DNA of 64,000 nt from a virus (IMGVR_UViG_3300044732_000704:1-64000), one strand, 5' to 3'. Shown: positions 3,659-61,106, counted from the stretch's first letter. Notes: a model not told the origin generated them from the letters alone. A program made the numbers and translations.

Positions 3659-3743
3659 AACGCTCTACAATCAATTATATTAATTCCCTACACATTCGTA
3701 TTCCCTTCACGAGATAATCTACTGTAGCGCTTCCTAGAGCGTT
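3659..3743 (+). repeat. Dispersed ~85-bp intergenic element, copy A
   Basis: CTACAATCAATTAT at 3665 and CCTAGAGCGTT at 3733; terminal inverted repeat AACGCTCTA/TAGAGCGTT. Confidence 0.8.
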
Positions 3744-3771
3744 ATATCGCTATTCAAATAGGAATCCTCTC

Positions 3772-3987
3772 ATGGGTAAAGTATTCACTAAAAGCTTTCT
3801 TACTAAGCTCAAAAAGAGTAAGACGATGCTGTTTAATATGCTCTTAGCATTCATCGGCATCCTAGAATATAACTTACATCTGTTTTATGATGTTCTTGGA
3901 GAGCATTACGGTATCGTATTTGTTATCATCGCTACGGTAGGCGCATATTTAAGGATGGTCACAACGGAGAGTATTGAGGACAAATAA
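3772..3987 (+). CDS. Holin-like two-TM protein
   Basis: Two TM helices and a basic N-terminus; follows the endolysin. Confidence 0.65.
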   Translation: MGKVFTKSFLTKLKKSKTMLFNMLLAFIGILEYNLHLFYDVLGEHYGIVFVIIATVGAYLRMVTTESIEDK

Positions 3988-6425
3988 TGGCTGATGTAAT
4001 TAAGACGATTGGTGCTGCTGGATCTGGTGCTGATTTCGCAAACTATCAAACTTGGTTTGCTGCTAGAACTGGTGGTGCGGGAGATAGGTACATCGGTGAG
4101 ATTATTACCACAACCGGAGGTCTGAGTACAGGGTTAGCTACCACAGGCAACTATGCGATGGAGGTTGTGATCCGTGCAGCAGCAGGATTAGAGTTTGATC
4201 CTACAGACCCCACAAAAGCCCACGCTATCATCTCTGCCGGTGGCGGTATCAACATACCGAGTACTGGTTCAGCAAAATTAACTATCGAAAACATTGAAGT
4301 ACGTGGTACAAGCACTAACCCAACAACATCGCTGATTAATACCGGCAGTGCTGTAGCGAATGTAACAATTCGTGGTTGTTGGTTGCGCGGCGGCAGGCAT
4401 GGTTGCCAAAATTCTGTATCTGGTGGCACACTACTGGTTGAAAATACGGTTGTTGAGGGTGCGTATCGGGCGGGCATTCAAGCGGCTTTTGCAGGTGTGA
4501 CAGCACGCAACGTGGTGATCGCTGGGTGTAACATTGAAGCCGGCACCACTGCGTCATATTGCGGGATGCGCAAAGACGTCGCGGGCACCGTGATCGAAAA
4601 CGTGGTCGCCTACGGCAACAGTGTGGTGGACTTCTTTGGCGCAACCACAGCAGCTACAGTTAGTTTCATGGCATCAGGAGATACTAGTGCATCTGGTACT
4701 GGTGCATTAACTGGTGTTACCTCAGCGGCGTTCACTAACTACGCTGGTGATGTCTTCACGGCTGCAACTGGTGGCGTGCTGGATGGTACTGGTCCTTCTG
4801 GTAATGACCGTGGTATTGTAACATCATCAAACCCTACCATTCTTTTAGTTACTCCAGCAACAGACGTATTTTTAGCTCGTGATAAAGCAACCAATAAAGG
4901 TAACATTGCCGTATCGGGTACTTGCACTAGCTTAGGTGTTGGTGCAACAATCGAAGCAAGATTTAATGGTGGTGCTTGGCAAGTAGTTGATGCAGCCCCT
5001 ACAACAACGTTCAGTGGTACGCTAACCAACCAAGCCTGTGGTGTCGGTGCTGTAGAAGTACGTGTATCAAACTTCGTGACTGCTACAGATAGTCATGCTA
5101 ATGTTGCAGTTGGTGCTAAATTCTTATTCTGGGGCCAATCAAACTACTCAGGTAGAGCTAACAATCCTCAGACATACACTGGACCAGTAGGTTGGTGGCG
5201 TAAACGCACCATAGAAACTAATACTCAAGTAACAGCCACTGCTGACCCATTTGATACATATACAGTTAACGGTTCTATATTCCCACTACTGGCAACTAAC
5301 CTCACAGCAGCACTTAATTGTCCAGTATTGTTTATCGGCGTTGCTGCGGGCGGTACATCGTTAGCTCAATGGCAACCTAGTCAAGCGCTAAATAACCGAA
5401 TGCTGACATTCTATAATGCAGAAGCAGCTACGGGACACGTTGAAGTAGTATCCAGTTGGATAGGTGAAGGTGATTCAGTATTAGAAACAGCGGAAGCTGA
5501 TTTTAAATCTAGATATAACACTGTAATCGACCAACTGAAAACATTAACCGGTGCGAACAGTTTGTTGGTAGCCCCTTCAGGGGAGAATCTTACAAGCTAT
5601 GCCAATGTACGTCAGTGGATTTCGGATATAGCTGAGACAAGTGCTAATACCGCACCAAATGAAGTGCAGATTTGGCCTCTGTATCAAAAGATACATTATG
5701 AAACAGACACTGAAACACAGTTAGCTGCTACAGCCGTATTCAATGGTTTGATTTCAAGTTTTTATGACCACGGTTTCGATGAAACTTTAACTAAAACCGA
5801 CATCACCACAACGTATGAGAACTTGACACTCAATGCTGGCTATTCAGGTAATGCAGCTAAGACTTCATACACATATGTCGGTAAGCAATTAACCTTAGAC
5901 TCTGGCACTTCTGTAGGTTTTAGTGGTAGTGTAACCAAGACAACCGTTACATTACAGAGTAAGAACCAAACGTTCTCTGGAGGTTATTCAAGTGATTGCG
6001 GGCTTACATCACTGTCCTTGGTAGGTAAGCAGTTAACCCTGTCGTCTGGAAGCGCTATAAGTTTTGAAGGGTCTTTATTAAAGACATCTGTGCCGATTAC
6101 ATTCAAATCGTTAACTTTATCATCAGGTGTCTCTGTGAGCTTCGAAGGTGATGTAGTTAAACTGCCTTTGAATGTTGAGCTGAAGACTTTAGCGCTTGAG
6201 ACCGGCACTAATTTACCATTTGAAGGTAGCGTTGTCAAACGTAATATCACATTACTGAGTAAACAACCGACATTATCTACTGGTTTGGATTTAGACGTAG
6301 TTAAAAACACATACACGTTTGGTTATAAGACATTAGAAATGTCTCAATCAGTTTTTTACCCAATAGACACTGCACGGATATATTTCGTTGGTGGATCTAA
6401 AAACAAAACATTTTACATAAAATAA
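3987..6425 (+). CDS. Virion fibre/spike: beta-helix + SGNH/SASA carbohydrate esterase + C-terminal repeats
   Basis: Parallel beta-helix pattern; FWGQSN, GGTSL and WIGEGD SGNH blocks; K-x-L-T-L-x-S-G repeats. Confidence 0.75.
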   Translation: MADVIKTIGAAGSGADFANYQTWFAARTGGAGDRYIGEIITTTGGLSTGLATTGNYAMEVVIRAAAGLEFDPTDPTKAHAIISAGGGINIPSTGSAKLTIENIEVRGTSTNPTTSLINTGSAVANVTIRGCWLRGGRHGCQNSVSGGTLLVENTVVEGAYRAGIQAAFAGVTARNVVIAGCNIEAGTTASYCGMRKDVAGTVIENVVAYGNSVVDFFGATTAATVSFMASGDTSASGTGALTGVTSAAFTNYAGDVFTAATGGVLDGTGPSGNDRGIVTSSNPTILLVTPATDVFLARDKATNKGNIAVSGTCTSLGVGATIEARFNGGAWQVVDAAPTTTFSGTLTNQACGVGAVEVRVSNFVTATDSHANVAVGAKFLFWGQSNYSGRANNPQTYTGPVGWWRKRTIETNTQVTATADPFDTYTVNGSIFPLLATNLTAALNCPVLFIGVAAGGTSLAQWQPSQALNNRMLTFYNAEAATGHVEVVSSWIGEGDSVLETAEADFKSRYNTVIDQLKTLTGANSLLVAPSGENLTSYANVRQWISDIAETSANTAPNEVQIWPLYQKIHYETDTETQLAATAVFNGLISSFYDHGFDETLTKTDITTTYENLTLNAGYSGNAAKTSYTYVGKQLTLDSGTSVGFSGSVTKTTVTLQSKNQTFSGGYSSDCGLTSLSLVGKQLTLSSGSAISFEGSLLKTSVPITFKSLTLSSGVSVSFEGDVVKLPLNVELKTLALETGTNLPFEGSVVKRNITLLSKQPTLSTGLDLDVVKNTYTFGYKTLEMSQSVFYPIDTARIYFVGGSKNKTFYIK

Positions 6426-6436
6426 AGGAAGACAAC

Positions 6437-6880
6437 ATGGCCGTAGGCGCATTTACTTTACTGAACACCGGCAAAGAAGCTTTAACGACTGATAATGCCA
6501 ATCAAATTAACTGGGTATCTGACACCATCGTTGGTGTATTGGTCACTCAAGCACATACTCCAGCATTGACTCATAGCACATACGCTGACATCTCTGCTAA
6601 CATCACTGCTGATGCCAACTACGCCCCTGCTGTTGTTACAGGCAAGACTTGTGTACGTACAGCAGATAAAATCTTGTGGGATTGTGATAACGTTAGCTTT
6701 GGTGATCCTGTCACTATTACCGCTAAATATCTCTACTGGGTGAAACGCGCTGGTGGTGCTTTGACTGGCACTGACCAACTAATTGGTTACGTAGATTTAA
6801 ACGTAGGCGCAGGTTTATCTGGCTCATCTACTAACTCGCTGTTCCGAGTAAACACTCCAGATGGTTTATTCGAAATCTAA
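6437..6880 (+). CDS. Virion structural protein
   Basis: INWxSDTI...LIGYVD type phage fibre-associated protein. Confidence 0.6.
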   Translation: MAVGAFTLLNTGKEALTTDNANQINWVSDTIVGVLVTQAHTPALTHSTYADISANITADANYAPAVVTGKTCVRTADKILWDCDNVSFGDPVTITAKYLYWVKRAGGALTGTDQLIGYVDLNVGAGLSGSSTNSLFRVNTPDGLFEI

Positions 6881-7221: not shown

Positions 7222-7452
7222 ATGTCAGCAGAATCTATCGTAGAGATTTATAGAACACAGGAACGCCGTGACGAGCATTTCTTTGTCTCAGCAGTAACAA
7301 TCTCATATTTCGGAAGAACCGCATTCATTCAAGGACTCTCTGGTACATTCACAATCAAGTGCTGGAGAGAACTTACTGAATACTTGATGACTAAAGATAT
7401 TGACCAAGTTCAGTATTACAGACATGGGTTCTTACGTACAATTTATCGTTAA
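7222..7452 (+). CDS. Hypothetical protein
   Basis: AGGAG RBS; last gene before the terminator. Confidence 0.6.
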   Translation: MSAESIVEIYRTQERRDEHFFVSAVTISYFGRTAFIQGLSGTFTIKCWRELTEYLMTKDIDQVQYYRHGFLRTIYR

Positions 7453-7455
7453 AAC

Positions 7456-7480
7456 AAAGCCCGCTAAATGCGGGCTTTTT
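7456..7480. terminator. Bidirectional intrinsic terminator
   Basis: AAAGCCCGC-TAAAT-GCGGGCTTTTT between convergent genes. Confidence 0.85.
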
Positions 7481-7488
7481 CATTTGTG

Positions 7489-9243: not shown

Positions 9244-9260
9244 CATTTATTTTAGGCAAT

Positions 9261-9284
9261 AAAAAGCCCCGCATGAGCGGGGCT
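9261..9284 (-). terminator. Intrinsic terminator after nrdB
   Basis: AGCCCCGC stem plus U-tract on the minus strand. Confidence 0.8.
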
Positions 9285-9301
9285 AGGTTCTGATAATTCT
9301 A

Positions 9302-10422: not shown

Positions 10423-11340
10423 TTATAACTTACAAGATTCGCAACCATCTTCAGCTTCTACTGTGTTGTGTAACGTAGTAGCTCGTTTAGGTTTGGTGTT
10501 GACGTAATACCAAGTCTTGTTGCCTAGCTTGAAGTGAGTGACGAACTCCTTCATCAGAACAGACATAGGCACCTTACCATCGGGATAGTTCTCAGGAGCA
10601 CGGAACATATCACAGCTAGTGGCTTGGTCAGTGAAATCTTGTATTTCAGAATAATACTTCGACATCACATTATTGTCAATATCCCATGCAGTTAAATGTT
10701 TACCTTCAATGAACTCTTTACAAATAAACTGAACCACACCCTTACGGCACTTCTTATACACAATCTTCTCTCTAGGACTGTACACGGAGTTAGGTACACC
10801 GCTCAAAAGACTGCTGCTCTCGGTAGGCATGTGAGCAACAAGAACAGAATGTTTCCGTGGCTTACCTCGCAATACTTCCCAGTCGAACTTACAGTCTTTC
10901 TTTATTGCTGTGTCAATAGGTAGCCATTTCGCATCAATACCTTCCACAGCGAATCCAGAAGCCTCAGAGAGCTTTTGAGAGGCTTTTAGCAGATAGTAGT
11001 AGTGACGTTCAGCTAAATATCTAACGCGCTCTAAAGACTCTACAGACCCATCATAGTCAAGTTTATTGTTGTATAAGTCAACAGCCAATCCCAACATACC
11101 CACACCAACGGAACGGCGAGACATAATATCAGCTTTCATTGAATCTGTCATCATTGGTGCGCTCTCAATCATAATGTCGATAGCTTCCAATGTCAAATCG
11201 GCTATGTGCTCGTATTCATCATCCGTCACAGCAGCTACGTTGATTCCAGATAAAGAACAGAAAGCTGTTTCACCTGTAGCTTTGGACGAATAAAGCTCTT
11301 TCATACCTTTGTAGCCTTTTGTCGGTAATTGTATTTCCAT
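10423..11340 (-). CDS. nrdA: Ribonucleotide reductase alpha subunit, exon 2
   Basis: Continues SNLC|MEI; contains CSL, MPTESSS, KTWYY and C-terminal CESCKL. Confidence 0.95.
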   Translation of the reverse strand: MEIQLPTKGYKGMKELYSSKATGETAFCSLSGINVAAVTDDEYEHIADLTLEAIDIMIESAPMMTDSMKADIMSRRSVGVGMLGLAVDLYNNKLDYDGSVESLERVRYLAERHYYYLLKASQKLSEASGFAVEGIDAKWLPIDTAIKKDCKFDWEVLRGKPRKHSVLVAHMPTESSSLLSGVPNSVYSPREKIVYKKCRKGVVQFICKEFIEGKHLTAWDIDNNVMSKYYSEIQDFTDQATSCDMFRAPENYPDGKVPMSVLMKEFVTHFKLGNKTWYYVNTKPKRATTLHNTVEAEDGCESCKL

Positions 11341-11638
11341 CAGTTGTGTTCAGCAGAGTTCGCTAATCTCTACCAGCGGCTTTACCCGCATCTATATGTT
11401 GCCATATAGCTCAGACTATATCATGTAGGTTCTTTCACGTAACCTACCCCTCCGCTTCGCTACGCTTGTAGCTACTCTACTCCATTCTGTCACGTTCACA
11501 GTGTTTCGATAGTCGTTACGGGTTATCGGTATCCAGTAGAACTCCGTCAAGCGGAGGGAACATTCAACCGATCTTCCCACGGTATTGTCTCAAAGAGATG
11601 TTCACCGTTTTCAAAGGGTTTATTCTGTGCCAAGATTA
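11341..11638 (-). ncRNA. ORF-less group I intron (IA2-like), 298 nt, in nrdA
   Basis: Exon ends in U and intron ends in G; P1 CUGUGU/GCACAG; P4 ACGGU/ACCGU; P7 GACUA/UAGUC; removal restores QSNLC-MEI in frame. Confidence 0.93.
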
Positions 11639-12892
11639 ACACAGATTACTTTGTCTAATTGTATCCAAGAACGGAGTATGTTTATTTGCCCTGCTCACAT
11701 TGATTGCATAGAAACGTCCTGTCTCTTGTCTGATTGTAAGGAAAGCTTTTAACATCTCACGAGCTTTAACTTTCTTGTGCTTCGTATCAACCTTCAGCAA
11801 CTTCTCTACAGCTTTGTTGTAGGTATCCATATCTGCCGTATAGAACAAATCATACAGCTTCGGTGCATCAGACAGACTAAACATATACCAGTCTGTATCA
11901 GTCACTACAGCATTGAAGAATGCGTCATTGAAAGCAAACGAATAATCCAGCTTGTCAATACGTGTTTCAAAATCTGTTAGCTGAGATTTCCAGTTAAACA
12001 CATCCATCACTTCTGGATTGATACACTGCACAGTCACTGTAGCGTTACCACCACGAGTGATTTGTGTTAGTGCTTTCACTTCCCCGTTCAATGCTTTGTA
12101 AATAGGACTCAACCCTAAGTGAGCTACACGACCACCTTTCACCGGAGAATGTTTAGTACGTAATGTGTACTCAATACCAATACCTGCTTTCTTAGCTGTC
12201 ATCCGATAAGCGATGTGATTAGCTACACCAATAGACTCGGTAGAGTCACCAGCACTAATTACACAGCAACTGATTGTATCCCAATCGCCATTACGCAGAC
12301 CATTCAAAGCTGGAGTAGGTAGATTAATCTTACCCTTCACCAACGCTTTCATAAAGTTAAAAGCTTTTTGTGTATCACCGAACAAAGCAACAGAGATACC
12401 GAAGTATGCTAAGTGAGGTGTCTCAATTATTACATCATTAATCTTACAAGCGTACTTGTCCGTGAACTGCTTTACCTGCCAGTACTCTAAACGTGTCTGC
12501 TTAATCTCGTTATACCAATCTTCCCAGACTGGATTGTATGGAGGAATGTAATCACTATCCCATACAGAGAAATCTTCATACGCTTGTAGAATATCTTTCA
12601 AGCTATCTCGATCATCGACACCAAAGACATACTTCATGTTCTTACGAATTGTAGCAAACTCTAAACGGCTCGCTACACGACTATATTCAAGATTCTCTTT
12701 ATCAATACAAACATCAATCATTGTCTGGTGAATGTCAACTGTAGAGATTTTATCTGTCAGCTTTTTATATGTCTCAAATGCAATGTCTGACCAATTACCA
12801 CCAACCTCTGTTGCATATTCAGCCCAGCGATTAAACTTGTCTGTGTCAAACGGAACCACTTCACCATTACGCTTAGTTACTGAACTAATCAT
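11639..12892 (-). CDS. nrdA: Ribonucleotide reductase alpha subunit, exon 1 (spliced product 723 aa)
   Basis: ATP cone VTKRNG; PTP, SCC and AGIG motifs; ends at the catalytic SNLC. Confidence 0.95.
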
Positions 12893-19933: not shown

Positions 19934-20266
19934 TTACCAAACGTGTTGAAAGCTATCTAATTTAGTGTCAGGAATTTCTTCTCCGAGAATGTTTCCAATT
20001 ATTGTTTGTGCTGCGAACAGCGACTCCCACCAAGCAGATTCTTGGTCAATTAAGTCTTCATAAAGTGCAACAGGTAACTCAACACCTATGTCTAAATCTT
20101 CAATGTCTGCATCAAACCAAGGACTGGCGTAATCTAATCCAAGTTCTTCTAAAGTAGTATGGAAGTCGCCGTCGAAGTCTTCATCGGCTTTAGCTTTGAC
20201 AGCTTCGTGTAAAGCGTCTTGATTTCGTGGAACCAACATTAATTTACTTTCAATATCAATACCCAT
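19934..20266 (-). CDS. Acidic hypothetical protein
   Basis: AGGAG RBS. Confidence 0.65.
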   Translation of the reverse strand: MGIDIESKLMLVPRNQDALHEAVKAKADEDFDGDFHTTLEELGLDYASPWFDADIEDLDIGVELPVALYEDLIDQESAWWESLFAAQTIIGNILGEEIPDTKLDSFQHVW

Positions 20267-22936: not shown

Positions 22937-23977
22937 TTATTCCGTTGTGTCAACATCTTCTTGTGAAGAATTTTCTATAAAAGTTTTAAGTCTCTCCGCT
23001 TCACTGTTTAAGAAATCAAAATCTGCGATTGACTCGTCGAACCGTTCTTTTATAACCTTAAACCCTTTAGCGTTAACTTCAGAAGTTTGGTGCCTACACA
23101 TAGCGGAAGATACCGCAGCAGCTATAACGCCCAGACCTCTATAAAGTACCACAAATTTATTACCATTGCAATAGACTTTATAAACAACCATCGCTTTTGT
23201 AGGAGAGCTTTCTTGCTCGAACAAACTCTTTTCTTGTTTAAACCTTGCGTTACCATAAGAAAACGGTAAATCCGATAAAAGGTGTTCATACTCAGCGGGT
23301 AATGATTCAAACCTCTCCCACTTATAACCCCTATAGGACTTTTTAGATCCGTTGCAAGCCGCATAAATATTTTGAAACTTAAAACCTTGATTGTTCTCAA
23401 TAACTTGATTAATACCTTGCCATAAAGTTATAGGTATATTCTCCATAGTTTTCTGTAGAAAGAAAGAACAATTAGCTGCACTTACTGCAACCTTCATCCC
23501 CTCTTTCACGCAAGGGTTATTCTTCCAGAAATCTGAAAAGAATTCAGATACTTTTTCGGGACTTCGTGTTCCATCTTCAAACTCCTTTAAAATTCTTTTT
23601 GAAATTTTATCTCGTGTTCTGGCATCTACGATAAGTCCGGTGCTTGAGTCTAAACGTAGGTTATACCCGCGCTTAGGGTCTAAAGCACAAAACTCTTGTA
23701 TCCAATACATTTCTCTTTCGGCAGCCAAAGATGGATCGCATACCTCTACAATGCTAAATGTAAAATTTTCTGGACTATGTTTGTTTATAGCGTTAAGAAA
23801 ATACTCATTTATCTTTCTAACATCTTGTTTCTTATACCCTGCTTTATAGTTGGCGTATCTTTTGCGGAAGTTTATAGTTTTCCCAATATAGACTTTGCCA
23901 TTGACGCCATTAACTATTTTATAAATACCTGAAGCGTTATTAAACTCCACCGGTATCTCCTTTTTAAAGAACTCCAT
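22937..23977 (-). CDS. GIY-YIG homing endonuclease with NUMOD-like domains
   Basis: SGIYKI...VYIG...R...E...GYN; NUMOD1-like IYAAC...YRGYKW. Confidence 0.9.
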   Translation of the reverse strand: MEFFKKEIPVEFNNASGIYKIVNGVNGKVYIGKTINFRKRYANYKAGYKKQDVRKINEYFLNAINKHSPENFTFSIVEVCDPSLAAEREMYWIQEFCALDPKRGYNLRLDSSTGLIVDARTRDKISKRILKEFEDGTRSPEKVSEFFSDFWKNNPCVKEGMKVAVSAANCSFFLQKTMENIPITLWQGINQVIENNQGFKFQNIYAACNGSKKSYRGYKWERFESLPAEYEHLLSDLPFSYGNARFKQEKSLFEQESSPTKAMVVYKVYCNGNKFVVLYRGLGVIAAAVSSAMCRHQTSEVNAKGFKVIKERFDESIADFDFLNSEAERLKTFIENSSQEDVDTTE

Positions 23978-23985: not shown

Positions 23986-26457
23986 TTAGTGGACATCATA
24001 ATAATTTTCACCCACTTTATAACCTCCATTGAGGTCAATAGCGAACTGTGGTGGTGTGTGGTTAGCAAAGTGTTCAGGAGTTTTTCTGTGATACTTGAAT
24101 ATCTGCTCAGCAGCCCAAGTGTAACAAGAACCTCCAAGTTTACCTGCCTGTTCCTCGTAACCTATTGAAACTTCTAATAAAGTTTCGTCATGCACGTCTA
24201 ATACACGTTTAATATGATTACGTAAACCTAACCTGTCTAACTCTTTACCTAAACGGATTGCTGCCATTTTCTGAGCTAAAGCTTCAAAACCCTGAACGAT
24301 GGTGTTAACACTCTTATGGCTACTGTTATTCCATAACCAATACCCAAAGGCTAATGGTAAATAGAAACCACCCTTGTACTTGAATTTATCTTCATACAAA
24401 GACAATGCTTTAATCGTGTTGTCAAGACCCATCTGTTTTAAGAACTGGTCTTTACGTTTAGCACCTTCTTTCTCAGGGATTCCAATAGTTTTAGCCACCT
24501 TCTTACCTGATGCACCGAAGATTACAGCGAAACTACCACCCTTGCTTGCCTTACGTTTCAAGGTTATTTTGTGGATTAACTCTTTATCTTGAGTCTCCAC
24601 AGCAGATTGCCAATCCACTTCTGACACCATGCCGAACATACGAGCGTTTACACAGTGTGCTGTCTGTCCTAAATATTTACCATCTTCTGAATACTCCATT
24701 CCAGAAGCTACGTTATTATAGTATTCATAGTTATTAGCATAATACGCTGCAATGGATAACTGTGCAGACTTCATATCAATACCTACCAATACTTTACCTT
24801 TAGGACAAATAACACTCTGTCTAATTTCTTTACCATACAAAGCGCTATCTGAAGGGGCATTAACCCAAATCCTCTGGGCACCACGGCCACTACGAGTAGC
24901 GAAATTATTAACTCCTGCTGGAATACGCCCATCCTCACGGACATAGCTTAACAATCCTTTATTCTCAGGGTCTTCCGGATTTTCTAAGAATCTACGTCTG
25001 TGTTGATACGTGTTATACTCCGCGATCTTTTTACCTAAACCTTCTGGGAGCTGGTCGTAATCATCGTCAGTTAATTTAGGACTACTAACCAAGTATTCGC
25101 CTTTCTTAACAAACTTAACTAACTGATGTTCCGGTAACGCCTTTTCAGGCCACCGTACCTCTACATCTTGTTCTGCTTTAATCCAATTGTCATAAGCATC
25201 TTTCCGTATGTTCCAAGAATCCGCATCCTTCCAACCAAGTTTAATTAAAAACGCTTTCACTATATCGGATTGTGTCATGGTAGACGGTTCAATCTCGATA
25301 CGTGTAAATGGCCCAGAAATAATATGCGTATCTGTAGGTTCTACTCCAAACCAATTGCATGTATGTGAGTTAATAACTTCAGTTACCACTTCTTTCTTTT
25401 CAATATCCCAGTCTTTGTTCTTAGTCTCTGGGTAACTTGCTTTAATCCAATCAGTTAAATCTTTCTTCTTATTGAATACTGGTGTAGCGCCGTAAGATAA
25501 ATTAAACCCGTAGTATTGGTTTACCTTCTCCTTAGAAGTAAAGTTAATAGTAGGTTTATAATAAGGTTTATCTACTACTGTAACCACTTCACCATCTTTC
25601 TTCCTTTGAGATGTAGATTCTACAATCTTACTTGAATCAAAACCAAACAACTCTGCCATCTCTTTACGAGATACTTTTGTTGTAGCACCTTTAATCGTAG
25701 GTGGTAGTTGTGGTTCAATCTCCGCACGTAATACTTCAATCTTAATATCCAAGTCATCAATGCAGCGTTTGATATGGTCAATATCTACCATAACACCTGT
25801 GGTTTCTTGTAGAAAACATTCATGTGCGTACAACGCTTCTACTTTAAGAGCGTAGGTAAAATCAATACCGTAGGTGTCTCGTAAGTAGTTACGTTCCTTC
25901 TCTAACATCAAATATGTTTGCGCTTGGATCTTACAGTCTTCAATAACCCTGTGTAATTTGAAAGCATCCATTGTAGACCAATCAGTGATCTCTGGTTTAT
26001 TAATCCCGCACTTAATACCCCAAGCTTTTAACCCATGTGGAGATTTTGCACCTTTAGGGCAAGGACGTTCAAACCACTGTAGTTTACTCTGGATAAACGT
26101 ATCATGGTAACTATCAAAAGGTATTGTATTCTCCGGCCAAATCTTATCAATAACTGGTCTGTCATATGTATGACAGTTATGGATAATTAGCAAGCTACCG
26201 TTATTTGCTGCATTACTCCAAAATGCAATACCTTCATCCAATGTACCTGAACGTTTAGGTATTGTGTACTCTTTATTGTCGTAAGGATCTACAACAACTA
26301 CATTATCAAACTCAGGGTTATTATGAAAGAGTATCACTTTACCTGTGTCAATATCAACAGAACACAGACAGTGAATATCCTCTTTAGAATTTACTACATC
26401 ATAGAAACCCTTTGCTTCTATATCACTGGCTAATTTTAAATTGCGATACTCTAACAT
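23986..26457 (-). CDS. DNA polymerase, family A, with 3'-5' exonuclease
   Basis: DIE exonuclease motif; motif A DMKSAQL, motif B RKASK, motif C VHDE. Confidence 0.95.
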   Translation of the reverse strand: MLEYRNLKLASDIEAKGFYDVVNSKEDIHCLCSVDIDTGKVILFHNNPEFDNVVVVDPYDNKEYTIPKRSGTLDEGIAFWSNAANNGSLLIIHNCHTYDRPVIDKIWPENTIPFDSYHDTFIQSKLQWFERPCPKGAKSPHGLKAWGIKCGINKPEITDWSTMDAFKLHRVIEDCKIQAQTYLMLEKERNYLRDTYGIDFTYALKVEALYAHECFLQETTGVMVDIDHIKRCIDDLDIKIEVLRAEIEPQLPPTIKGATTKVSRKEMAELFGFDSSKIVESTSQRKKDGEVVTVVDKPYYKPTINFTSKEKVNQYYGFNLSYGATPVFNKKKDLTDWIKASYPETKNKDWDIEKKEVVTEVINSHTCNWFGVEPTDTHIISGPFTRIEIEPSTMTQSDIVKAFLIKLGWKDADSWNIRKDAYDNWIKAEQDVEVRWPEKALPEHQLVKFVKKGEYLVSSPKLTDDDYDQLPEGLGKKIAEYNTYQHRRRFLENPEDPENKGLLSYVREDGRIPAGVNNFATRSGRGAQRIWVNAPSDSALYGKEIRQSVICPKGKVLVGIDMKSAQLSIAAYYANNYEYYNNVASGMEYSEDGKYLGQTAHCVNARMFGMVSEVDWQSAVETQDKELIHKITLKRKASKGGSFAVIFGASGKKVAKTIGIPEKEGAKRKDQFLKQMGLDNTIKALSLYEDKFKYKGGFYLPLAFGYWLWNNSSHKSVNTIVQGFEALAQKMAAIRLGKELDRLGLRNHIKRVLDVHDETLLEVSIGYEEQAGKLGGSCYTWAAEQIFKYHRKTPEHFANHTPPQFAIDLNGGYKVGENYYDVH

Positions 26458-32450: not shown

Positions 32451-32457
32451 GTGTGTG

Positions 32458-32870: not shown

Positions 32871-32956
32871 AATCGTCTACAATCAATTATCTGTGTTCAC
32901 CCACATCAACACACCCTTTCACCTAAATAATCGCTTAGAATGAACCCTAGAGCGTT
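32871..32956 (+). repeat. Dispersed ~85-bp element, copy B
   Basis: CTACAATCAATTAT at 32877 and CCTAGAGCGTT at 32946. Confidence 0.8.
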
Positions 32957-32990
32957 TTAGAGAGGAATAGGGTGCTTGTCGGAATGTTTA

Positions 32991-33221: not shown

Positions 33222-33307
33222 CTCAATCTCCTCATTTGTTTCAATAGATACATTCTAATGCACATTATCTTGTGCGTCAAGCATTATTTCACTTTATTTT
33301 AGGCAAT

Positions 33308-33332
33308 AAAAAGCCCAGCGAATGCTGGGCTT
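33308..33332 (-). terminator. Intrinsic terminator
   Basis: Same stem as 32428, with U-tract. Confidence 0.8.
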
Positions 33333-33338
33333 AGGTGT

Positions 33339-33563
33339 TTATAAATTTGGATCAGTTAAAGCAGCTAGTGTTCGATCTAGCTCATAAGCTGTAATCAACT
33401 CACACAGTTTAATTCTAGGGCAATAACTGTAATAAGCTACAGTGAACCCCGTCTGTCTAGACATGAGGGATACACAGTGTTGTACATGGTCTAAATCCAT
33501 GTCAGCAATCAGTAGCTTTCTCCCATCACGAGTGTTCCAGTATGTGTTTTGTGGGGTGTTCAT
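33339..33563 (-). CDS. Hypothetical protein
   Basis: WxTRDGR..IADMxxxH motif common in phage proteins. Confidence 0.6.
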   Translation of the reverse strand: MNTPQNTYWNTRDGRKLLIADMDLDHVQHCVSLMSRQTGFTVAYYSYCPRIKLCELITAYELDRTLAALTDPNL

Positions 33564-34858: not shown

Positions 34859-35223
34859 TAAATAACCCTTCTAATACTCCAATAAAAAGACAAAGGCTTC
34901 GCCTTTCAAGCTACAGCTTCTCTGTATAAGTGAAAACTTAATAAAAATACCCCTACAAGCCTTGTCCTGTAAGGGTTTTATACATAGTTTAGCTTCTAAT
35001 TTTCCTCAAACACTTCCCACATCGTTTCAAGATGTTCGATTACTTCTTCCAGATGTTCCTGACTATCAATTTCCAGATAGATACTTCCATCAATAAACAT
35101 CAAAGTTTTCACCACATCATCAATACGAATCTTCATAGTATTCCTCCATTACTTGCTAATACACCCTTAAGTGTAACATAGATACCTTGTTTGTCTAATA
35201 ACGTTTTGGAATAAGAAAACGTG

Positions 35224-35442
35224 TTAACTAAACAAATATTCCTCAATATCACAAGTTAATATGTCACAAAGATAACTCTTAATCTCTGTCATCTCACTCC
35301 ACAACTTCTTAGCTTTATGTTTATCATTAGCTAAAATAGCTCCTGAAAGCTTAGACACCAATCCAAGCTGTACACGATACATCCCAGACAGGATGATTAG
35401 TTCTTCTAATGCTTCAGCAGGAGCTTTGTTATTATTCAACAA
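35224..35442 (-). CDS. Hypothetical protein
   Basis: In operon. Confidence 0.55.
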   Translation of the reverse strand: MLNNNKAPAEALEELIILSGMYRVQLGLVSKLSGAILANDKHKAKKLWSEMTEIKSYLCDILTCDIEEYLFS

Positions 35443-35845
35443 TATCTACCCAATTCATAGTTGATACATTTTGACCATAGACACCACCGTAGAAGTAGTT
35501 ATCATCCGGCCAAGATAAATTACCTCCGTAATAACCGTTTGACGAGTTTCGATAGTCAATCACTATTTCACCTTTGGTTGTCGTGATGGAGCAACCATAT
35601 ACTTGTAAACAATCATATTCTGGGTGATTGTCGTCTGAGCCAGATAACTCTAAATCAGCAAAACCTAACACTAATGCAGGAAAGCCCAGCGCAGGTAACT
35701 CAACGTGTTCTATCCAAGTATGTGAACAACAACCAGCATCAACTTTAACAATATGGTCTCCATCGACACACTTAAACAACAACGCTTCCTTATCGTCAGC
35801 AATCATAATTTTGACAATTGTCTTACCAACCAAGAAATCACTCAT
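35432..35845 (-). CDS. Conserved phage protein (CCS...SNGYYG)
   Basis: GCCSHTW and SSNGYYGG motifs. Confidence 0.65.
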   Translation of the reverse strand: MSDFLVGKTIVKIMIADDKEALLFKCVDGDHIVKVDAGCCSHTWIEHVELPALGFPALVLGFADLELSGSDDNHPEYDCLQVYGCSITTTKGEIVIDYRNSSNGYYGGNLSWPDDNYFYGGVYGQNVSTMNWVDIVE

Positions 35846-36132
35846 TCCACTTTCTCCTTCTCTAATTGATCAATCTGTTCATAATTATACATATCTTCGT
35901 CGTAAGAGTCAATACGTAAAAGATTACATTCTCTATTAAAGTACCGCTCTCCATCAAGAACACCAAAAGCATTATCAAACTTCATTGGCTTATCCACTCG
36001 CCAATAATCTTTTAATCGGCTATCGGGTAACTGTCCAACGAAGTCACCAACTCTCACCACTTTACCAATGTTCTCAGAGCAACGTCCAGCAACAACAATA
36101 GCTAAACAACCTTTCTCGATTTTGTTATTCAT
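35842..36132 (-). CDS. Hypothetical protein
   Basis: GGAG RBS; promoter upstream. Confidence 0.6.
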   Translation of the reverse strand: MNNKIEKGCLAIVVAGRCSENIGKVVRVGDFVGQLPDSRLKDYWRVDKPMKFDNAFGVLDGERYFNRECNLLRIDSYDEDMYNYEQIDQLEKEKVE

Positions 36133-36287
36133 CTAAATTTCTCCATACGTTTGAACATGCAGCCACTTTACACACATGCACCTCTCATGTCAACCAGAAT
36201 CGTTTACGAATTTATTTAAAATTCTTGTTGATACAGGGAACAGATGAGCGTAGAGTTGTTCACATCGAAACGAATGAGGATTTACCG

Positions 36288-36662
36288 ATGACTACAAAGA
36301 AACCTGCAAATAAAACCACTAACCGGCATTCTGGCGATGACATCAAGATTGCTATGGCTTATGTAAGTAAAGCACGTTCCAGTAAAGATCGTGGTATTGA
36401 TTTCAATATCTCTTTTGTTAGCTTTAAGAATATGTGCAAAGCTAAGAAATGTTATTTCACAGGGTTGACATTGACAGCAGATACGTTTACAATCGACCGT
36501 ATTGATAGCAACAAGCCTTATGAAGCAGGGAATGTTGCAGCTTGTCATACAACGTTCAATAGTTTAAAGAGCATGATTGAGAATCCTGTAAATGACTTAG
36601 ATTTAGCTAAAACATTAAGAGGATTACAACGTACAGCGAAGCGGATTAAGGAGAACAAGTAA
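36288..36662 (+). CDS. HNH-fold protein
   Basis: KCYFTG...TIDRIDS...Y..GNV..C...N; GAGGA RBS before ATG 36288. Confidence 0.6.
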   Translation: MTTKKPANKTTNRHSGDDIKIAMAYVSKARSSKDRGIDFNISFVSFKNMCKAKKCYFTGLTLTADTFTIDRIDSNKPYEAGNVAACHTTFNSLKSMIENPVNDLDLAKTLRGLQRTAKRIKENK

Positions 36663-36925
36663 TGTTAATGCAAGAATACATTAAACTGAAGCATCAAGCT
36701 TGGAAAGCTGTTGAAGAAGGGAGATCTTATCATTACCGTTATGGTCAATCAGTATGGAACTTGCTTCCTAAAGAAGTTTCTGATAAGATTTATTCAACCA
36801 GTTACGACTTCTTTTATTGGCCTGACACTAACGCTTTTGAAATTGATAATATCTGTCATCGTTTGTGTGAAGATTGGGTAGATAAAGAAACATCGTTACT
36901 AATTGAGATTGGACATTCAATTTAA
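36662..36925 (+). CDS. Hypothetical protein
   Basis: RYGQ..WN motif; translationally coupled. Confidence 0.6.
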   Translation: MLMQEYIKLKHQAWKAVEEGRSYHYRYGQSVWNLLPKEVSDKIYSTSYDFFYWPDTNAFEIDNICHRLCEDWVDKETSLLIEIGHSI

Positions 36926-37052
36926 ACGCTCTAGGACTGTTCTTCCAGAACAGGCAGACAAAGCCATGCTTTGCTGTATTCATTCTAAGACGTTTTAACA
37001 GCTAAGCTATACGTTGGCTTAGGATAACATAAATAATCGCTCATAGAGCGTT
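36925..37052. repeat. Dispersed element, copy C (extended, 128 bp)
   Basis: Terminal inverted repeat AACGCTCTAGG...ATAGAGCGTT; AAATAATCGCT shared with copies B and E. Confidence 0.7.
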
Positions 37053-37065
37053 GTAGGAGGAATAA

Positions 37066-37485
37066 ATGAGTGTAGATGCTAAACTGTTTGTATGTGCTGG
37101 TAAAGAAGTGGCTTTGGATTTGTTAAGTAATGTATTGACTGTCATTAAAAATGAGTCTTTAGGGTTTTACGGTGGTCGTAGTAATGAGTATGAACCACAT
37201 TTTATGGGCAGTATTGCTAGTTTCTACATTGGTTTTAAATATCGTCCAGTAGGGTTAGACACCAGCTTTCAGAAGCGTCAATTATCTATCCACTTCGGTT
37301 GTGACTCTGATTATTCAGACACATATGAAGGTGATAAAGTAATCCTCAGCTTAGGTTGTTGGGGTAGTAGCGATGAAATTATGAAAACTTTAGCAAAAGA
37401 GCTTGCACAGTTTGGTGATGTGTATTATGATCATAACGATTGTGATACAGAAGATTTTGTTAAATTGTACAGCAAAGGAGAATAA
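37066..37485 (+). CDS. Hypothetical protein
   Basis: AGGAGG RBS. Confidence 0.7.
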   Translation: MSVDAKLFVCAGKEVALDLLSNVLTVIKNESLGFYGGRSNEYEPHFMGSIASFYIGFKYRPVGLDTSFQKRQLSIHFGCDSDYSDTYEGDKVILSLGCWGSSDEIMKTLAKELAQFGDVYYDHNDCDTEDFVKLYSKGE

Positions 37486-37633
37486 ATATGATTACCTTTA
37501 CATGGATTCTAATGATTGCAAATTTTTGGATCTCTTTAATACCTGAGAACACTTCCATGACCTTAAAAGTTGTTAACTTAATATGTGGGTTAAATTGCAT
37601 GGTGATGTTACTAAGCCATTACAAATTAATTTA

Positions 37634-37728
37634 AACGCAATAGGAAGCGTTCTAGGCCACGATAATTTATCCCAATACATTCGGATAGGATTAAGGAGAA
37701 AGTGGCTTAGAATTAATTGTAGAGCGTT
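37634..37728 (-). repeat. Dispersed element, copy D (inverted)
   Basis: Reverse complement reads AACGCTCTACAATTAATT...CGCTTCCTATTGCGTT, matching copy A. Confidence 0.7.
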
Positions 37729-37743
37729 ATAGAGCATGTTTGG

Positions 37744-37959
37744 ATGAGGAGAGGGATCGTGGTTAGATGTTTTCTAATACTGGTGGCTACATTATCATGT
37801 TTCACTGCAAACACAGCAACAACTGATTTTAAATATAAGAAAGTGGTTGACAAAGAGCTGAGAAGTCAGTACTATCGTGAATGTAAATTAGACAAGGGTG
37901 AAAACTGTCATATGTTTTCATTCAACAAAGCTGTTAAACTTGAAATTGTGGAGGGATAG
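37744..37959 (+). CDS. Small exported protein
   Basis: Signal-peptide-like N-terminus. Confidence 0.5.
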   Translation: MRRGIVVRCFLILVATLSCFTANTATTDFKYKKVVDKELRSQYYRECKLDKGENCHMFSFNKAVKLEIVEG

Positions 37960-43107: not shown

Positions 43108-43355
43108 GTTGTTTATGTAGGGTTATCCTACAGTGTGCACACTGAAAGCGAATAAACTCTGCTTATGAGCGTTATTTACTACTAATTACATTCCAATAAT
43201 ATCCCTCAAATTATCATCAGGCGAAGTGGTAGCAATCGCAAGATTGTCTAACACGAAGCAAAGCTTGTTCCTAATCAATAAAATCAATTAGTCAAATCCA
43301 CTAACTATTAGTCTATCTCACCACTACAATTATGCCTGTCAATATAAACATAAAT

Positions 43356-46058: not shown

Positions 46059-49028
46059 TTAATTCCCCCTGAACAAAACATACTCTGTTGATTCTTTATC
46101 TTGCCGATAGTTCTGTACCCAACCATCTGGTCTAGGGAGACATAACCTCGTTACACTAATATCTTTAGGTGTAACAAGATATTGTTCGCTATACATCTCC
46201 GCAGCCACTAACATATGTGGCGGATATGTCTTTAATAACTCAATCAATTCATTTACTGTCATTCCCATTTCACTCCTGCATCATCTAATGCTTCTTTTAA
46301 AGCATCCATCATCTGTCTTGTGCAATCATACTCATCCCAAGATGGAAGCTTCACCACTAAACCTTCGGTGTACTTCTCATGCGATGCCATCCAACCATCC
46401 CAAGCACCTTCTTCATCTAGGTAGACCAGCTTGTCGTGTGATAGAGACACCAACCATTTCTCAAAGTCTTCTTTGGTTTGTTCTTGTGTCATTCCTTCTC
46501 CACCTCCCTACAAATAAACTCATCAGCTAATGTTGTACAGACAATTTTATCTTCTGTGTACATCTTGATAATCCCTGTGTCTCGAATGTGTACTGTGCTG
46601 AGAACTAATAATCCCATCACCATCATACCTAATAAGAATGTGATTACATTACTCTCAAATTTACTCATAAATTCCCTCCATCAATAACCCTCTTAACATA
46701 AGCCAACATCTTTTCTTGTGTCTCTACACCACTCCAAAAGATTTCATCTGTATTGAAATAACGTTCATACACAACTGTTCTGTCTGGTGCCCACACCATC
46801 ACTTGCTGGCTATATGTATCTGGACAACGTAATGTCTGTTCAATTGGATAGAAGCATATTTGATAATCTTTATACCAATGAGATTCTTGGTGTTTGTTGT
46901 TAGCCATTAAGTAATACCTTTAATCTGTTCATAACCCTGACGACTGATCTTGTATGAATCTCCATTCATCATTGTAATTACAAGGCTAAACTCATCTCTT
47001 AATCCATATTGGCGATACGGTCTAATAGAGCATACAAGGTTCCTGTTAACTTCGATGACTCCGTGGTCTTTTGTTACAATCTCTACAAACATTTAATCCT
47101 TCCCTCCAAGTTCTAAGATACGTTTATTGTAATAATAACTATCTTCCACTAACCACGTATTCCCATTATAATCTGTGTAATCGTAATCATCAAATCGCTC
47201 TCCTTTGAACTTCTCATATACTACTTCACCATAAGGACAATACGATGGTGCCGATTGTTGAATTCCTACATGAATCTCTGTGTCTTCTGGAAATTGTTCT
47301 AACCATTGTTGAAAGTCTTTTCTATTCATTTATTCACCCTCCGACTTTCAGACCAACAATCCCACAATCTTTGTGTAAGGCTGTTCAAGTAGAACCCTTC
47401 TTCATCTGTGGATAAATCATAGTTCCACTTCTTAGCAAATTCCTCAAATTGCTTATTACTCTCAAAATGTTGCTGTGCTGAAGATAAGTCAATATTTACA
47501 GTATGTATTTCAGATAGATCGCTCATTTACTCTCCTCAAATTATTACTATTTCTTTTTCCGAAGTGTTTTAGAGAATAATCCCCTCATACTGAGTTCATC
47601 CAAAACAGCCCATATTACGAAAAGAATATTAAATATAGGTATTACAGCAAGTATTACAGTACCTACCACCTCACCAACCGTCACGGCACCTCTCCGGTAG
47701 AAATCAATACCACATATTACGAGTGTAAGTAAAGCAGGTAGAACATATAAAATAAATAATTCCATATCATTACTCCACATCAATAATCTTTAAGATTTTA
47801 TCATAACCTTCTTGGTCTGTAATTAGCCAGCAGTTTCCATCCAAGATAACTTTATAATTACCGTCACCATATTCTGTAATGCTTGAAATTGTAGATACTC
47901 TAAGCAGTGCTAATGGAGACATTTCTTCCCCAAACTTCTCAATAGATTTAACTTTTACAAACATAATCAATTCTCCTCTTGTTCAAATACTGGAATTAAG
48001 AATACCCCACCTTCACCTAATCTGTCAATGTCTTTCTGTGCAGCTTATTGTGTTTCGTAGCAGGGTGTATAACACTTGTCAGGAGAAGCATAGCACACCC
48101 ACTCATCGACTTCCTCATCAAGAAAGATGTCATAATAATCATCTGGACTATGTTTCTGTTTGACATGCCACATATCTACTCCCTAGTTTATCTTATGACC
48201 ATTCTTACGCCAATAGTCAAGAACATTAGATTGTTGTTGTGTCAACAATAACTCACTACCGGATTTACTCAGCTGGTAAATGTTTCTTAACGTGTACCAT
48301 TTCTCTGTATAACCAATATAGAACACTTCACTTGGTGGACGATCATCGTTGTATGGATAAAACCAAGGGTAGCAAGGCTGAAGCCATTCAGAGATTTCAT
48401 CTTTCAGAACACCTGTGACATCCACATATTCCTCTTTACGTATCCACAATAGCCACCAAACCCTCACCTGCTTGTATGTCTGGATAGTTTTCCAAATAGA
48501 CGCACAGGTGGTTAGTTCTTTTGTCTTTTCTAAGAACTCTTTAATGCGTTGCTTTTCCAGATCAGACATCACAACTTTTACAGCTCCAGCAAAACAATCA
48601 CTCATTAGTTAGTCTCCTTCTCAATATCATTAGACCAAGCAATAAGCTCGTCAGTGTTGTAAGCGTATTCGTTTGGTGCTTTCTCATCTGTTTTGATGAT
48701 GTACAACAACGTACCAAATCCCGAATTCATCACTTTCAGAACATAACCGTTAGAAAGGAAAGGTTTATCTTTCCATTTCACTCTATCCCTTACTTTGAAT
48801 CTAGTCATAATAATCTCCGTCGAATTCTATATGATAACCTTCATGCTCAAGGAATTGCATTAACACATCTTTTAGTGATGTATTTTCGCAACCAAAACAG
48901 TAAGCATGTGCCTCATTACCGATCACAACGTCCTTGTAAAATAACTGGTAGGATTCTTCCCAAGTACCACCACAAGTTTCACAATCATGTTCGTCTGTTG
49001 TATATTTGATAACTATTTTCTTGGTCAT
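46059..49028 (-). other. Run of about 12 small hypothetical genes
   Basis: Closely packed minus-strand ORFs with GGAG/GAGG RBS (e.g. 46059-46268, 46259-46492, 46665-46907, 46907-47092, 47093-47329, 47326-47526, 48183-48605, 48605-48808, 48801-49028). Confidence 0.6.
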
Positions 49029-54500: not shown

Positions 54501-54514
54501 ATTGCACATAAAAC

Positions 54515-54539
54515 AAAGCCCGCATTTAGCGGGCTTTTT
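54515..54539. terminator. Bidirectional terminator
   Basis: AAAGCCCGC-ATTTA-GCGGGCTTTTT. Confidence 0.85.
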
Positions 54540-54701
54540 CATTTGTATCATATGTTCCTTTATACACTTCTTGCATACACTCCTCAATCTCTTTAGGAGA
54601 CAGAAAGCTACATAAGATGACATACAATGCGTTACGTTCTGCTAATAGATCAGGAACGCGCATAGGCGGTCTATCGTCGATGTCTGTGTAGTGGTATGAC
54701 A

Positions 54702-60331: not shown

Positions 60332-60669
60332 TATTCCAATTCCTCCAATAGTTCTGTCAACAATTGCATCTGACGTTTAATTCTCGCTACAGGACATTTA
60401 GGGTTAGGCATAGTAGAGAACCCTCTAAATGTTACTTCCTCGCACCACCAATCAGCAATATCAAATAATTCAATGACTTCGTTCTCAGTCAGTCGCATTA
60501 CATTGCCGAAATCAGTTAACACATGGAACAAGTGAAATGTTTCTACACCACCGTAATTCTCATCTTCTTCTTTAATAATAAAAGCATTCCCACAACGCTG
60601 ACCATCTTTAGTTGCTAAAGCCATACCTACTTCTGGGGTAAATTTACGATTAATTGGTTTCATTCTCAT
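60331..60669 (-). CDS. Hypothetical protein
   Basis: TKDG...GNA...TDFGN motif. Confidence 0.6.
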   Translation of the reverse strand: MRMKPINRKFTPEVGMALATKDGQRCGNAFIIKEEDENYGGVETFHLFHVLTDFGNVMRLTENEVIELFDIADWWCEEVTFRGFSTMPNPKCPVARIKRQMQLLTELLEELE

Positions 60670-60674
60670 CCCCC

Positions 60675-60980
60675 TCAAAAACTTGGTTTCTTAAATTTAA
60701 TAGTCAAGCGTTCATACTCGGCTTTCTCTTTTTCTTCTAGCATTTTAACATAATACGCTTCTCTCCCCAGTCTCCCTTGATATTCTTCATCAGTTTCTTC
60801 TCTGTTGTGATAAACTACAAATTCTTTATACTCATCACCCCAAGAATACCGTGTTTCAACCTCGTAGTCCAATGTGTTACCGTACTGTGTAACTAACTCT
60901 TGCAGTTCAAGAATTAAATCCGGAACATTGCCCTCTGTTTGAAGTGTTGTCAGCTCTACTCGAACCATCTGTTTACTCAT
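60675..60980 (-). CDS. Hypothetical protein (start moved to MSKQ)
   Basis: GAGG RBS; REETDEE motif. Confidence 0.6.
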   Translation of the reverse strand: MSKQMVRVELTTLQTEGNVPDLILELQELVTQYGNTLDYEVETRYSWGDEYKEFVVYHNREETDEEYQGRLGREAYYVKMLEEKEKAEYERLTIKFKKPSF

Positions 60981-61021
60981 TACCTCAATCCTCCTGTTAA
61001 AATCAATTATAACCGCCCTAT

Positions 61022-61106
61022 AAACGCCTACAATCAATTATATTCATAAAGTCATACATACGTAGCCATAAATAAAATAATCGCTTATAATCGTTCCTAG
61101 AGCGTT
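61022..61106 (+). repeat. Dispersed ~85-bp element, copy E
   Basis: CTACAATCAATTAT at 61028 and CCTAGAGCGTT at 61096. Confidence 0.8.

Follow-up and report, generated by a model that had tools for sequence, protein, structure and literature searches.

Dispersed ~100-nt intercistronic palindromes in an uncultured phage form a conserved family that may act as structured RNA

Introduction

How does a phage come to carry, between genes that have nothing in common, several copies of one non-coding sequence about 100 bp long? The question is raised by IMGVR_UViG_3300044732_000704:1-64000, a 64,000-nucleotide stretch of viral DNA that was analysed at its full length and is here called the window. 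Five similar intergenic elements (copies A to E) are dispersed between its positions 3,659 and 61,106, and a sixth (copy F) lies just past its end. The proteins flanking the elements are unrelated to one another, such that no common downstream gene family emerges. The elements nevertheless constitute a family, with conserved positions and sequence blocks, with the potential to form hairpins, and with two arms that co-vary within each copy. Judged from sequence comparison, this family most likely controls gene expression. Our leading, albeit tentative, reading is that it is a conserved intercistronic family of structured RNAs, each of about 100 nt, that serve as processing or stability signals within polycistronic mRNA.

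The window covers the initial 64 kb of an uncultured phage record of 93,434 bp (IMG/VR; guanine-plus-cytosine (GC) content 38.7%). A 127-bp direct terminal repeat is present at the genome ends (1-127 and 93308-93434); as 127 bp is a common maximum k-mer of assemblers, this repeat probably reflects a circular assembly overlapping itself, not the true phage ends. Encoded in the genome are a T7-type primase-helicase, a family-A DNA polymerase, a ribonucleotide reductase, a Dda-like helicase and several homing endonucleases. Among cultured phages, the closest relatives are the Rheinheimera "Barba" myoviruses, which show 44% identity in a 432-amino-acid (aa) protein and, in Barba8S, an agreeing gene order; ICP1-like Vibrio phages are relatives farther off. 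Since the Barba phages are cultured, their host is known and RNA sequencing (RNA-seq) data have been published, the function of the elements is directly testable.

Results

The motif TAGAGCGTT occurs seven times in the window, against 0.32 expected by shuffling; none of 100 shuffles reached seven, and all seven occurrences fall within the elements. Likewise, AATTGATTGTAG with at most one mismatch is found six times against 0.79 expected. A profile built from 21 copies was used for searching genomes, and the members in and beside the window are as follows.

Copy A, 3645-3752 (-): profile score 52.4 bits on the minus strand and 30.1 on the plus strand; hairpin z-score -3.39 (+) and -2.46 (-); a lysozyme-like gene at 3163-3648 (+) before it and a 71-aa gene at 3772-3987 (+) after it.
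Copy B, 32862-32968 (-): 53.5 bits; z +0.6; between a 76-aa gene at 32991-33221 (-) and a 121-aa gene at 32458-32823 (-).
Copy C, the long copy, 36918-37068 (-): 44.3 bits for 36982-37068; z -3.58 / -3.16.
Copy D, in sense orientation, 37628-37742 (+): 63.3 bits; -29.4 kcal/mol, z -3.40.
Copy E, in sense orientation, 61011-61114 (-): 68.0 bits; -26.9 kcal/mol, z -3.41; between a nucleotidyltransferase-like gene at 61122-61763 (-) and a 102-aa gene at 60675-60983 (-).
Lone second 3'-block core ATAATTGATTTTAA, 60997-61010 (-): between copy E and the AGGAGG ribosome-binding site of the 102-aa gene.
Copy F, genome 64213-64311, outside the 64-kb window: found by profile search.

An initial, sequence-only reading had described copies A to E as intergenic elements with fixed arms around a free middle, and much of that description stands. 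Sequence reading and pattern scans confirmed all five copies and their location between genes. Copies A, B and E share exact CTACAATCAATTAT (at 3665, 32877 and 61028, +) and exact CCTAGAGCGTT (at 3733, 32946 and 61096, +); the reported arm spacing of 68, 69 and 68 is a start-to-start distance, the gap between the motifs being 54-55 nt. The terminal inverted repeat and the sub-repeats 10-11 nt apart are both as described. It is the free middle that fails, as the family alignment reveals a conserved GCGATTAT(C/T)T and a conserved central ~TACGTAT. The conserved spacing of the arms is accounted for by the whole unit being a palindrome, or hairpin, with conserved internal blocks.

Each element is a single imperfect palindrome of ~100 bp with the ends TTTAAAC...GTTTAAA, since both arms are one and the same unit in inverted orientation. 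This unit consists of TAnAAT, six bases and TAGAGCGTT, often with a second TAG(A/G)G unit ~11 nt further on. Sub-repeats of TTGTAG / CTACAA recur two to three times per arm, ~11 nt apart, and the centre is a weak palindrome, ~TACGTA. In the family alignment the first part of the consensus reads ATTTAAAC-GCnCTAGGA-...-TTCTAAGC-GATTATCT and the remainder ...-ATACGT(T)CGTAT-...-ATAAAATGGCTTA(G/T)AATTGATTGTAG-AGCG-TTTAAAT. Conservation is much stronger in the 3' block (GGCTTAKAATTGATTGTAG...) than in the 5' arm: AAAATGGCTTAKAATTGATTRTAG...GTTTAA is near-identical among the copies of this phage, of Barba and of the related genome G011, whose 5' arms can barely be aligned. Hexamers resembling a -10 box (TATAAT, TAGAAT, GATAAT) lie in the arms, 6 nt ahead of (G)TAG.

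The placement of the family is uniform, every copy spanning the interval from a stop codon to the next ribosome-binding site of co-directional genes. In copy C, which has AACGCTCTA at 36925 and TAGAGCGTT at 37044 as its termini, the stop codon of the upstream gene lies within ATTTAAAC, and the ribosome-binding site GTAGGAGG of a 139-aa gene follows immediately. The block directly joins GTAGGAGGTTTAAATG in copy F, as it does in the B orthologue of G002. The copies differ in their internal make-up. Copy A is nearly symmetric, with GATAATCTACTGTAGCGCTTCCTAGAGCGTT in the arm facing the downstream gene and exact ATAATTGATTGTAGAGCGTT in the opposite arm; its orthologues are present in G001 and G005. 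Copy B is held in a two-gene unit with a sigma70-like promoter of its own (33280) and terminators at both sides, and its G002 orthologue directly abuts GTAGGAGGTTTTAAATG of an unrelated gene. Copy C carries an insert of ~49 nt (about 36934-36982) made up of two small hairpins, CAGCAAAGCATGGCTTTGTCTG and CTGTTCTGGAAGAACAG, in place of the TGATTA of its G004 orthologue. In the inverted copy D, CTACAATTAATTCT lies at 37709-37722 (-), the inner stem (GTTCTAGGCCAC / GTGGCTTAGAAT) comprises 12 bp, and the 3' block is GTGGCTTAGAATTAATTGTAGAGCGTTATAGAGC. Copy F has the stem AGCCATTTTAGA/TCTAAAATGGCT (12-bp AGCCAUUUUAGA stem).

Two smaller features were seen beside these copies. At 37684-37710 in copy D, AAGGAG, a good Shine-Dalgarno sequence, stands 3 nt before GTG GCT TAG, a possible two-codon mini-open reading frame (ORF) in the conserved 3' block; the same place reads ATG GCT TAT AAT TGA in Barba (23352) and G011, and copies A, B and E have none. 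The 189-aa protein encoded immediately upstream of copy F (window 63601-64000; gene end at genome 64170) has an N-terminal GIY-YIG-like motif, YVYCL...LVYIGST.

Orthologous copies were found by exact-pattern scans of IMG/VR in five close relatives, with 84-91% nucleotide identity over the aligned stretches. Profile matches numbered six in this genome, five in Barba8S, five in the 93.4-kb contig G006, two to three in G007 and one each in G011 and L171, the last being the single new member from a metagenome scan. Barba8S possesses the same 12-14-mer as well as its five full elements (20048-20155, 23268-23376, 25713-25821, 43154-43249 and 46337-46440), and the arrangement is roughly syntenic: one copy is situated ~1 kb past the 432-aa polymerase-like gene, two lie early in the adjacent rightward block, one just within the next leftward block, and one past the replication-initiator-like genes. 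That these non-coding copies can still be aligned, unchanged in number and map location, while the phage proteins are only ~35-45% identical, implies strong selection.

Orientation is biased. The better-scoring strand of the profile is the sense strand in 14 of 18 copies from four genomes; among the four exceptions are copies A and C of this phage and the Barba counterpart of F, the last an orientation flip at a syntenic site (F is sense, its counterpart at 46337 antisense).

Beyond these phages, a narrow scan of GTDB bacterial species genomes with a 20-base pattern returned no family member, only chance or partial matches, and a broad pattern scan of IMG/VR returned chiefly noise. The stretch CTTAGAATTGATTGTAGGGCGTTGTAG, present at L182:3600-3632 and L180:5558-5635 (Lachnospiraceae / Ruminococcus assemblies), resembles the 3' block over more than the 20-base search pattern; it may be a chance resemblance or a distant phage relative in gut bacteria.

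Five of the six copies in this phage are predicted to form long hairpins (z -3.4 to -3.7), copy B alone having no fold into a single long hairpin, and the gene-sense strand has the lower z-score in five of the six. Twelve copies from relatives range from -0.3 to -4.7, nine of them at or below -2. In most copies, B and that of G011 excepted, the prediction comprises a lower stem, an internal loop of 6-7 nt and an upper stem. The stem sequences themselves vary by copy, with 18 perfect pairs in G007, and the arms are matched within each copy: the duplex of a copy's own 5' and 3' arms has an energy of -24.2 kcal/mol, against -20.7 kcal/mol with the arms of other copies (permutation p = 0.002). In the main stems of D and F, seven substitutions between orthologues retain G-U or A-U pairing on the sense strand and one breaks it; on the opposite strand these changes are C-A mismatches. 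The main-stem substitutions of copy D in its G002 and G004 orthologues mostly retain wobble pairing.

Discussion

We place first, though with less than even confidence, the reading of the elements as RNA hairpins, because it gives the best joint account of five observations: the intercistronic placement, the copy-specific stems, the co-variation of the arms, the wobble substitutions and the tolerated inversion. As no terminator lies between a copy and its upstream gene, each copy must be co-transcribed, and the orientation flip at a syntenic site suits a near-symmetric hairpin better than a promoter. On this reading RNA rather than DNA would be the active form, and the hairpin a site of processing or stability. 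Such a long irregular hairpin within a polycistronic mRNA would act in cis on gene expression. Its lower stem would be (UUUAAAC)GCUCUA / UAGAGC(GUUUAAA), its internal loop would present the conserved AAUUGAUUG on the 3' side, and its upper stem would be copy-specific, with a partly conserved tip. It may function as a processing or stability signal in the manner of the RNase III sites between the genes of phage T7, the message being cut or capped at the gene boundary which would allow adjacent genes to differ in expression level. An internal start may in addition be supplied by the -10-like hexamer of the 3' block; T7 promoters are also placed beside its RNase III sites.

The T7 sites (R0.3 ... 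R18.5) number about ten per genome and are irregular hairpins in which two stems surround an internal loop; they are mutually similar within a genome, keep the same map positions in relatives and often stand beside promoters. Here too, the six elements lie between co-transcribed genes with no terminator intervening, and most of them are predicted to be irregular hairpins. The present elements differ from those of T7 in being longer (~100 nt) and palindromic to the centre, in carrying sub-repeats of ~11 nt, and in being inverted in four of 18 cases. The logic is shared with the T7 sites; a sequence relation is not visible by eye. The family has no Rfam match and no published description that we found; by term search, "promoter" is absent from the Barba genome paper (PMC6715854), and "promoter" and "intergenic" are absent from the transcriptome paper (PMC9305737).

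Several observations weigh against a processing hairpin. It needs neither the 11-nt phasing of the sub-repeats nor a palindromic centre, and it offers no reason for the 3' block being so much more conserved than the sequence with which it pairs. Counted across the complete predicted folds, substitutions between orthologues reveal no constraint on pairing, with 13 substituted pairs preserved and 20 disrupted, and the excess of G-T over A-C mismatches (30:10) comes from this phage's own lineage only, the corresponding ratio in Barba, G006 and G007 being 7:8. RNAalifold, applied to a MAFFT alignment, yields no consensus structure, because the pairing registers differ among copies, and copy B remains unfolded. 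By eye, there is no similarity to the T7 phi1.1A-1.1B region, in which the RNase III site R1.1 is presumably located; the record annotates promoters there and no RNase III site. Finally, Barba transcript levels across the five copies are inconsistent, at +3.2x, +2.6x, -2.6x, about -28x and 1.2x (per-gene RNA-seq counts from PMC9305737 Table S2, the sole transcriptome of a relative, length-corrected and mapped to gene numbers by our own inference; the value of about -28x rests on a doubtful 138-bp gene).

The main rival explanation, possible though more doubtful, is that the elements are promoters without a -35 box (GGCTT-TAnAAT-TGATTG-TAG...), with a -10 hexamer followed by 6 nt and the start, at which host RNA polymerase would act with the help of a phage factor. 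In both arms the TTGTAG / CTACAA sub-repeats, being phased, would be palindromic operators for a phage regulator, which would bind along one face of the helix and connect the arms. The ~11-nt phasing and the palindromic centre indeed suit a DNA-binding protein. In all six copies of this phage the gene-facing arm has a -10-like hexamer 6 nt ahead of (G)TAG, with the start codon 18-60 nt away; both F and the B orthologue of G002 have the promoter-like block joined directly to GGAGG-N-ATG. The 3' block, which as noted is the better conserved part in this lineage, Barba and G011, also occurs alone ahead of a ribosome-binding site, at 60997-61010 and at Barba 30660. In the G001 orthologue of A, it is the gene-facing arm that is nearer to consensus, and the antisense arm lacks the motif; in copy D of G004 the hexamer has become TATAAT in place of TAGAAT, with the loss of a base pair. 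Transcripts rise about 3-fold past two sense-oriented Barba copies, by our own gene mapping.

Set against this, no -35 box is present at any spacing, and a promoter scan placed no site within the elements. Downstream of the -10 box, TGATTGTAG is missing from the sigma70-like promoters of the phage itself. No gene with a Sigma70_r2 domain was found in the genome, other sigma-like or polymerase-binding families not having been searched. By the better profile strand, four of 18 copies face away from genes, one of them at a syntenic site, and copy B lies within a two-gene unit that already has a promoter. Long copy-specific stems and wobble-type substitutions are not expected of a promoter, nor is the change of the copy D hexamer from TAGAAT to TAGGAT in G002. 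Transcripts are lower or unchanged past three Barba copies. The promoter reading nonetheless accounts better for the conservation skewed towards the 3' block, the constant interval between the -10-like hexamer and (G)TAG, the sub-repeat phasing of 11 nt and the occurrence of the block by itself ahead of a ribosome-binding site, and it and the RNA-hairpin reading are compatible with each other. Should the elements prove to be either processing or stability hairpins or -35-less promoters with palindromic operators, they would represent a new class of regulatory signal in widespread aquatic myoviruses, and either outcome would also explain the exchange of accessory genes exactly at the elements.

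Promoter and stem-loop are already known to be combined in the promoter-early stem-loop (PeSL) cassettes of the T4-type phages RB49 and phi1, conserved intergenic units of ~100 bp that have a strong -35/-10 pair and a stem-loop with a G/C tract that terminates transcription (Arbiol et al. 2010, PMC2839356). The present elements resemble PeSLs in having a stem-loop, a -10 box and, at the 3' end, a Shine-Dalgarno sequence and start codon, and in being associated with small genes gained or lost between close relatives. They differ in lacking a -35 box (sigma70-type, 16-18 nt spacing) and a U-tract, and in that the hairpin spans the whole unit. The same genome has a closer PeSL analogue in a second repeat family, a set of terminator hairpins of the form AAAGCCC...GGGCTTT; the terminators at 32429-32450 and 33311-33332 are followed directly by TTGACA-N16/17-TAnAAT promoters (32407 and 33280). 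The repeats are as follows.

7442-7484: GC-rich terminator repeat.
9249-9291: GC-rich terminator repeat.
32414-32456: GC-rich terminator repeat.
33296-33338: GC-rich terminator repeat.
54501-54543: GC-rich terminator repeat.

It is unlikely that the elements are either recombination linkers, conserved patches of intergenic homology that would serve cassette swaps in the manner of PeSLs, or selfish palindromes resembling miniature inverted-repeat transposable elements (MITEs) and lacking a dedicated role in expression. The flux of genes around them is considerable: at five of the six elements the neighbouring genes vary among close relatives and the element itself persists. G002 lacks the gene after C, has ~290 bp added after D, shows unrelated genes on both sides of B, and lacks the GIY-YIG-like gene before F, homology resuming 2 nt past the stop codon of that gene; in G001 and G004 it is the gene after E that is missing, though E itself is present. 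Many end points of nucleotide homology coincide with element edges (36974/36982, 37056, 37631, 37754, 60984, 61107 and 64294). The elements are, furthermore, palindromic with inverted ends.

Yet their copy number and map positions are kept across very distant relatives, and in five relatives there is no empty site, the element being present wherever the alignment covers the locus. Neither a Y1 transposase nor a tyrosine recombinase gene was found, DDE transposases, serine recombinases and the host genome not having been searched, and no mobility gene was seen among ~30 annotated ORFs. The narrow 20-base scan of GTDB species genomes, as reported above, gave no member. Element-by-element recombination does not account for the gains and losses of genes, as G002 retains both C and D. 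As to the marks of a MITE, terminal inverted repeats are present; the TTTAAA ends are part of the inverted repeat, which makes a target-site duplication indistinguishable. Bacterial Correia, ERIC/IRU and REP repeats are likewise palindromic, ~100-150 bp long, located in transcribed intergenic DNA in either orientation and folded in mRNA, and Correia elements bear outward promoters and RNase III sites. The present family differs from these in belonging to a lytic phage, with five to six copies at conserved positions, no empty sites in the five relatives and no mobilising enzyme found.

Action as folded DNA is more improbable still. A hairpin or cruciform of this kind could, for example, serve as a single-strand initiation signal, as a recombination site resembling attC, or as the hairpin-shaped promoter or origin of the phage's orphan family-A polymerase. 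The palindrome runs through its centre, its arms co-vary, and the tolerance of G-T mismatches on one strand would also fit single-stranded DNA. The AAAC...GTTT termini are reminiscent of the AAC...GTT boxes found in integron attC sites, which are imperfect palindromes of 57-141 bp between co-directional genes, with AAC...GTT ends and a variable centre. The likeness extends to the imperfect palindrome between co-directional genes, the AAC/GTT ends and the varying neighbours. The elements differ from attC in that their ends are ATTTAAAC / GTTTAAAT and not RYYYAAC / GTTRRRY, in being dispersed rather than arrayed, and in that no IntI or other tyrosine recombinase gene was found in the genome. The junctions of gene gain and loss are not of the attC-by-attC type, and the strict placement from stop codon to ribosome-binding site favours expression over replication.

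The orphan polymerase of this explanation would be the 432-aa protein (33560-34858, -), whose gene adjoins B, C and D and is found clade-wide. It belongs to phrog_4756 and has no Pfam match. Its predicted fold (predicted local distance difference test score 87.5) is that of a family-A polymerase; the top structural matches are DNA polymerases I, with low template-modelling scores, and these predicted matches do not settle whether it is a DNA or an RNA polymerase. DYxQLxPR and PIHDS are invariant; motif A is Pol I-like, and motif C is HDS, a form that typifies RNA polymerases of the single-subunit kind. The close relatives G001-G004, and G006 as well, encode a second paralogue (33-39% identical), and homologues occur in Barba, ICP1 and other Vibrio and Aeromonas phages. 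By analogy with the hairpin promoters of the N4 virion RNA polymerase, the elements could conceivably be folded-hairpin sites for a phage-specific enzyme, in the sharpest form promoters or initiation sites for this 432-aa family-A polymerase, in which case the clade would possess a minimal polymerase and, dedicated to it, about six structured sites of initiation; we regard this as very improbable.

The proposals of the sequence-only reading can be placed among these explanations. It had favoured a bipartite DNA site for a protein; the 11-nt phasing and the palindromic centre fit such a site, and its premise of fixed arms around a free middle does not hold. A single sequence-specific binder is further opposed by the copy-specific stems (as in F, and in the perfect 18-bp stem of G007), by arm sequences that vary among the copies within relatives' genomes, and by substitutions in the D and F stems that retain wobble pairing between orthologues. 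Occurrence in either orientation was correctly seen, with the qualification that orientation is not random. The absence of promoter resemblance holds for the -35 box and not for the arms, which contain -10-like hexamers. Its MITE-like alternative is weak, given synteny at 44% identity in a single shared protein and the lack of an empty site in the five close relatives, and its alternative of a structured RNA is the best fit among the readings while being unproven. It had looked to relatives and to Rfam for a decision: the arms are conserved in relatives, and there was no Rfam match in the window, for copies B, C and D even at E <= 10, from which we take the element to be real.

A number of known identities were tried and rejected. 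Rfam covariance models gave no match over the whole window, and at E <= 10 over 32800-37800 (copies B, C and D) gave six weak matches, none of which overlaps an element. No tRNA or tmRNA was found. A standard sigma70 promoter is discounted by the lack of a -35 box and by the phage's own sigma70-like promoters being without the block. For a sigma54 promoter, judged by eye, the TGGC...TTGA spacing is one base short and the GC is missing. The elements are not intrinsic terminators, as they are long AT-rich hairpins with no U-tract; a terminator scan detected within them nothing but small sub-hairpins, located in C and D on the antisense strand. Control of the T4-lysozyme type, in which a hairpin would conceal the ribosome-binding site and an internal promoter would release it, is rejected, since the predicted accessibility of the Shine-Dalgarno-to-AUG region is the same with or without the 5' arm in 14 of 16 copies. 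A programmed -1 frameshift at U UUA AAC is in the wrong frame in C, and in D the heptamer lies past the stop codon. A search of the genome for RegA found none.

Away from the elements, we noted that the large subunit of ribonucleotide reductase is encoded in two ORFs on the minus strand, 10423-11340 and 11636-12892, which lie ~300 bp apart and cover profile positions 61-488 and 489-795.

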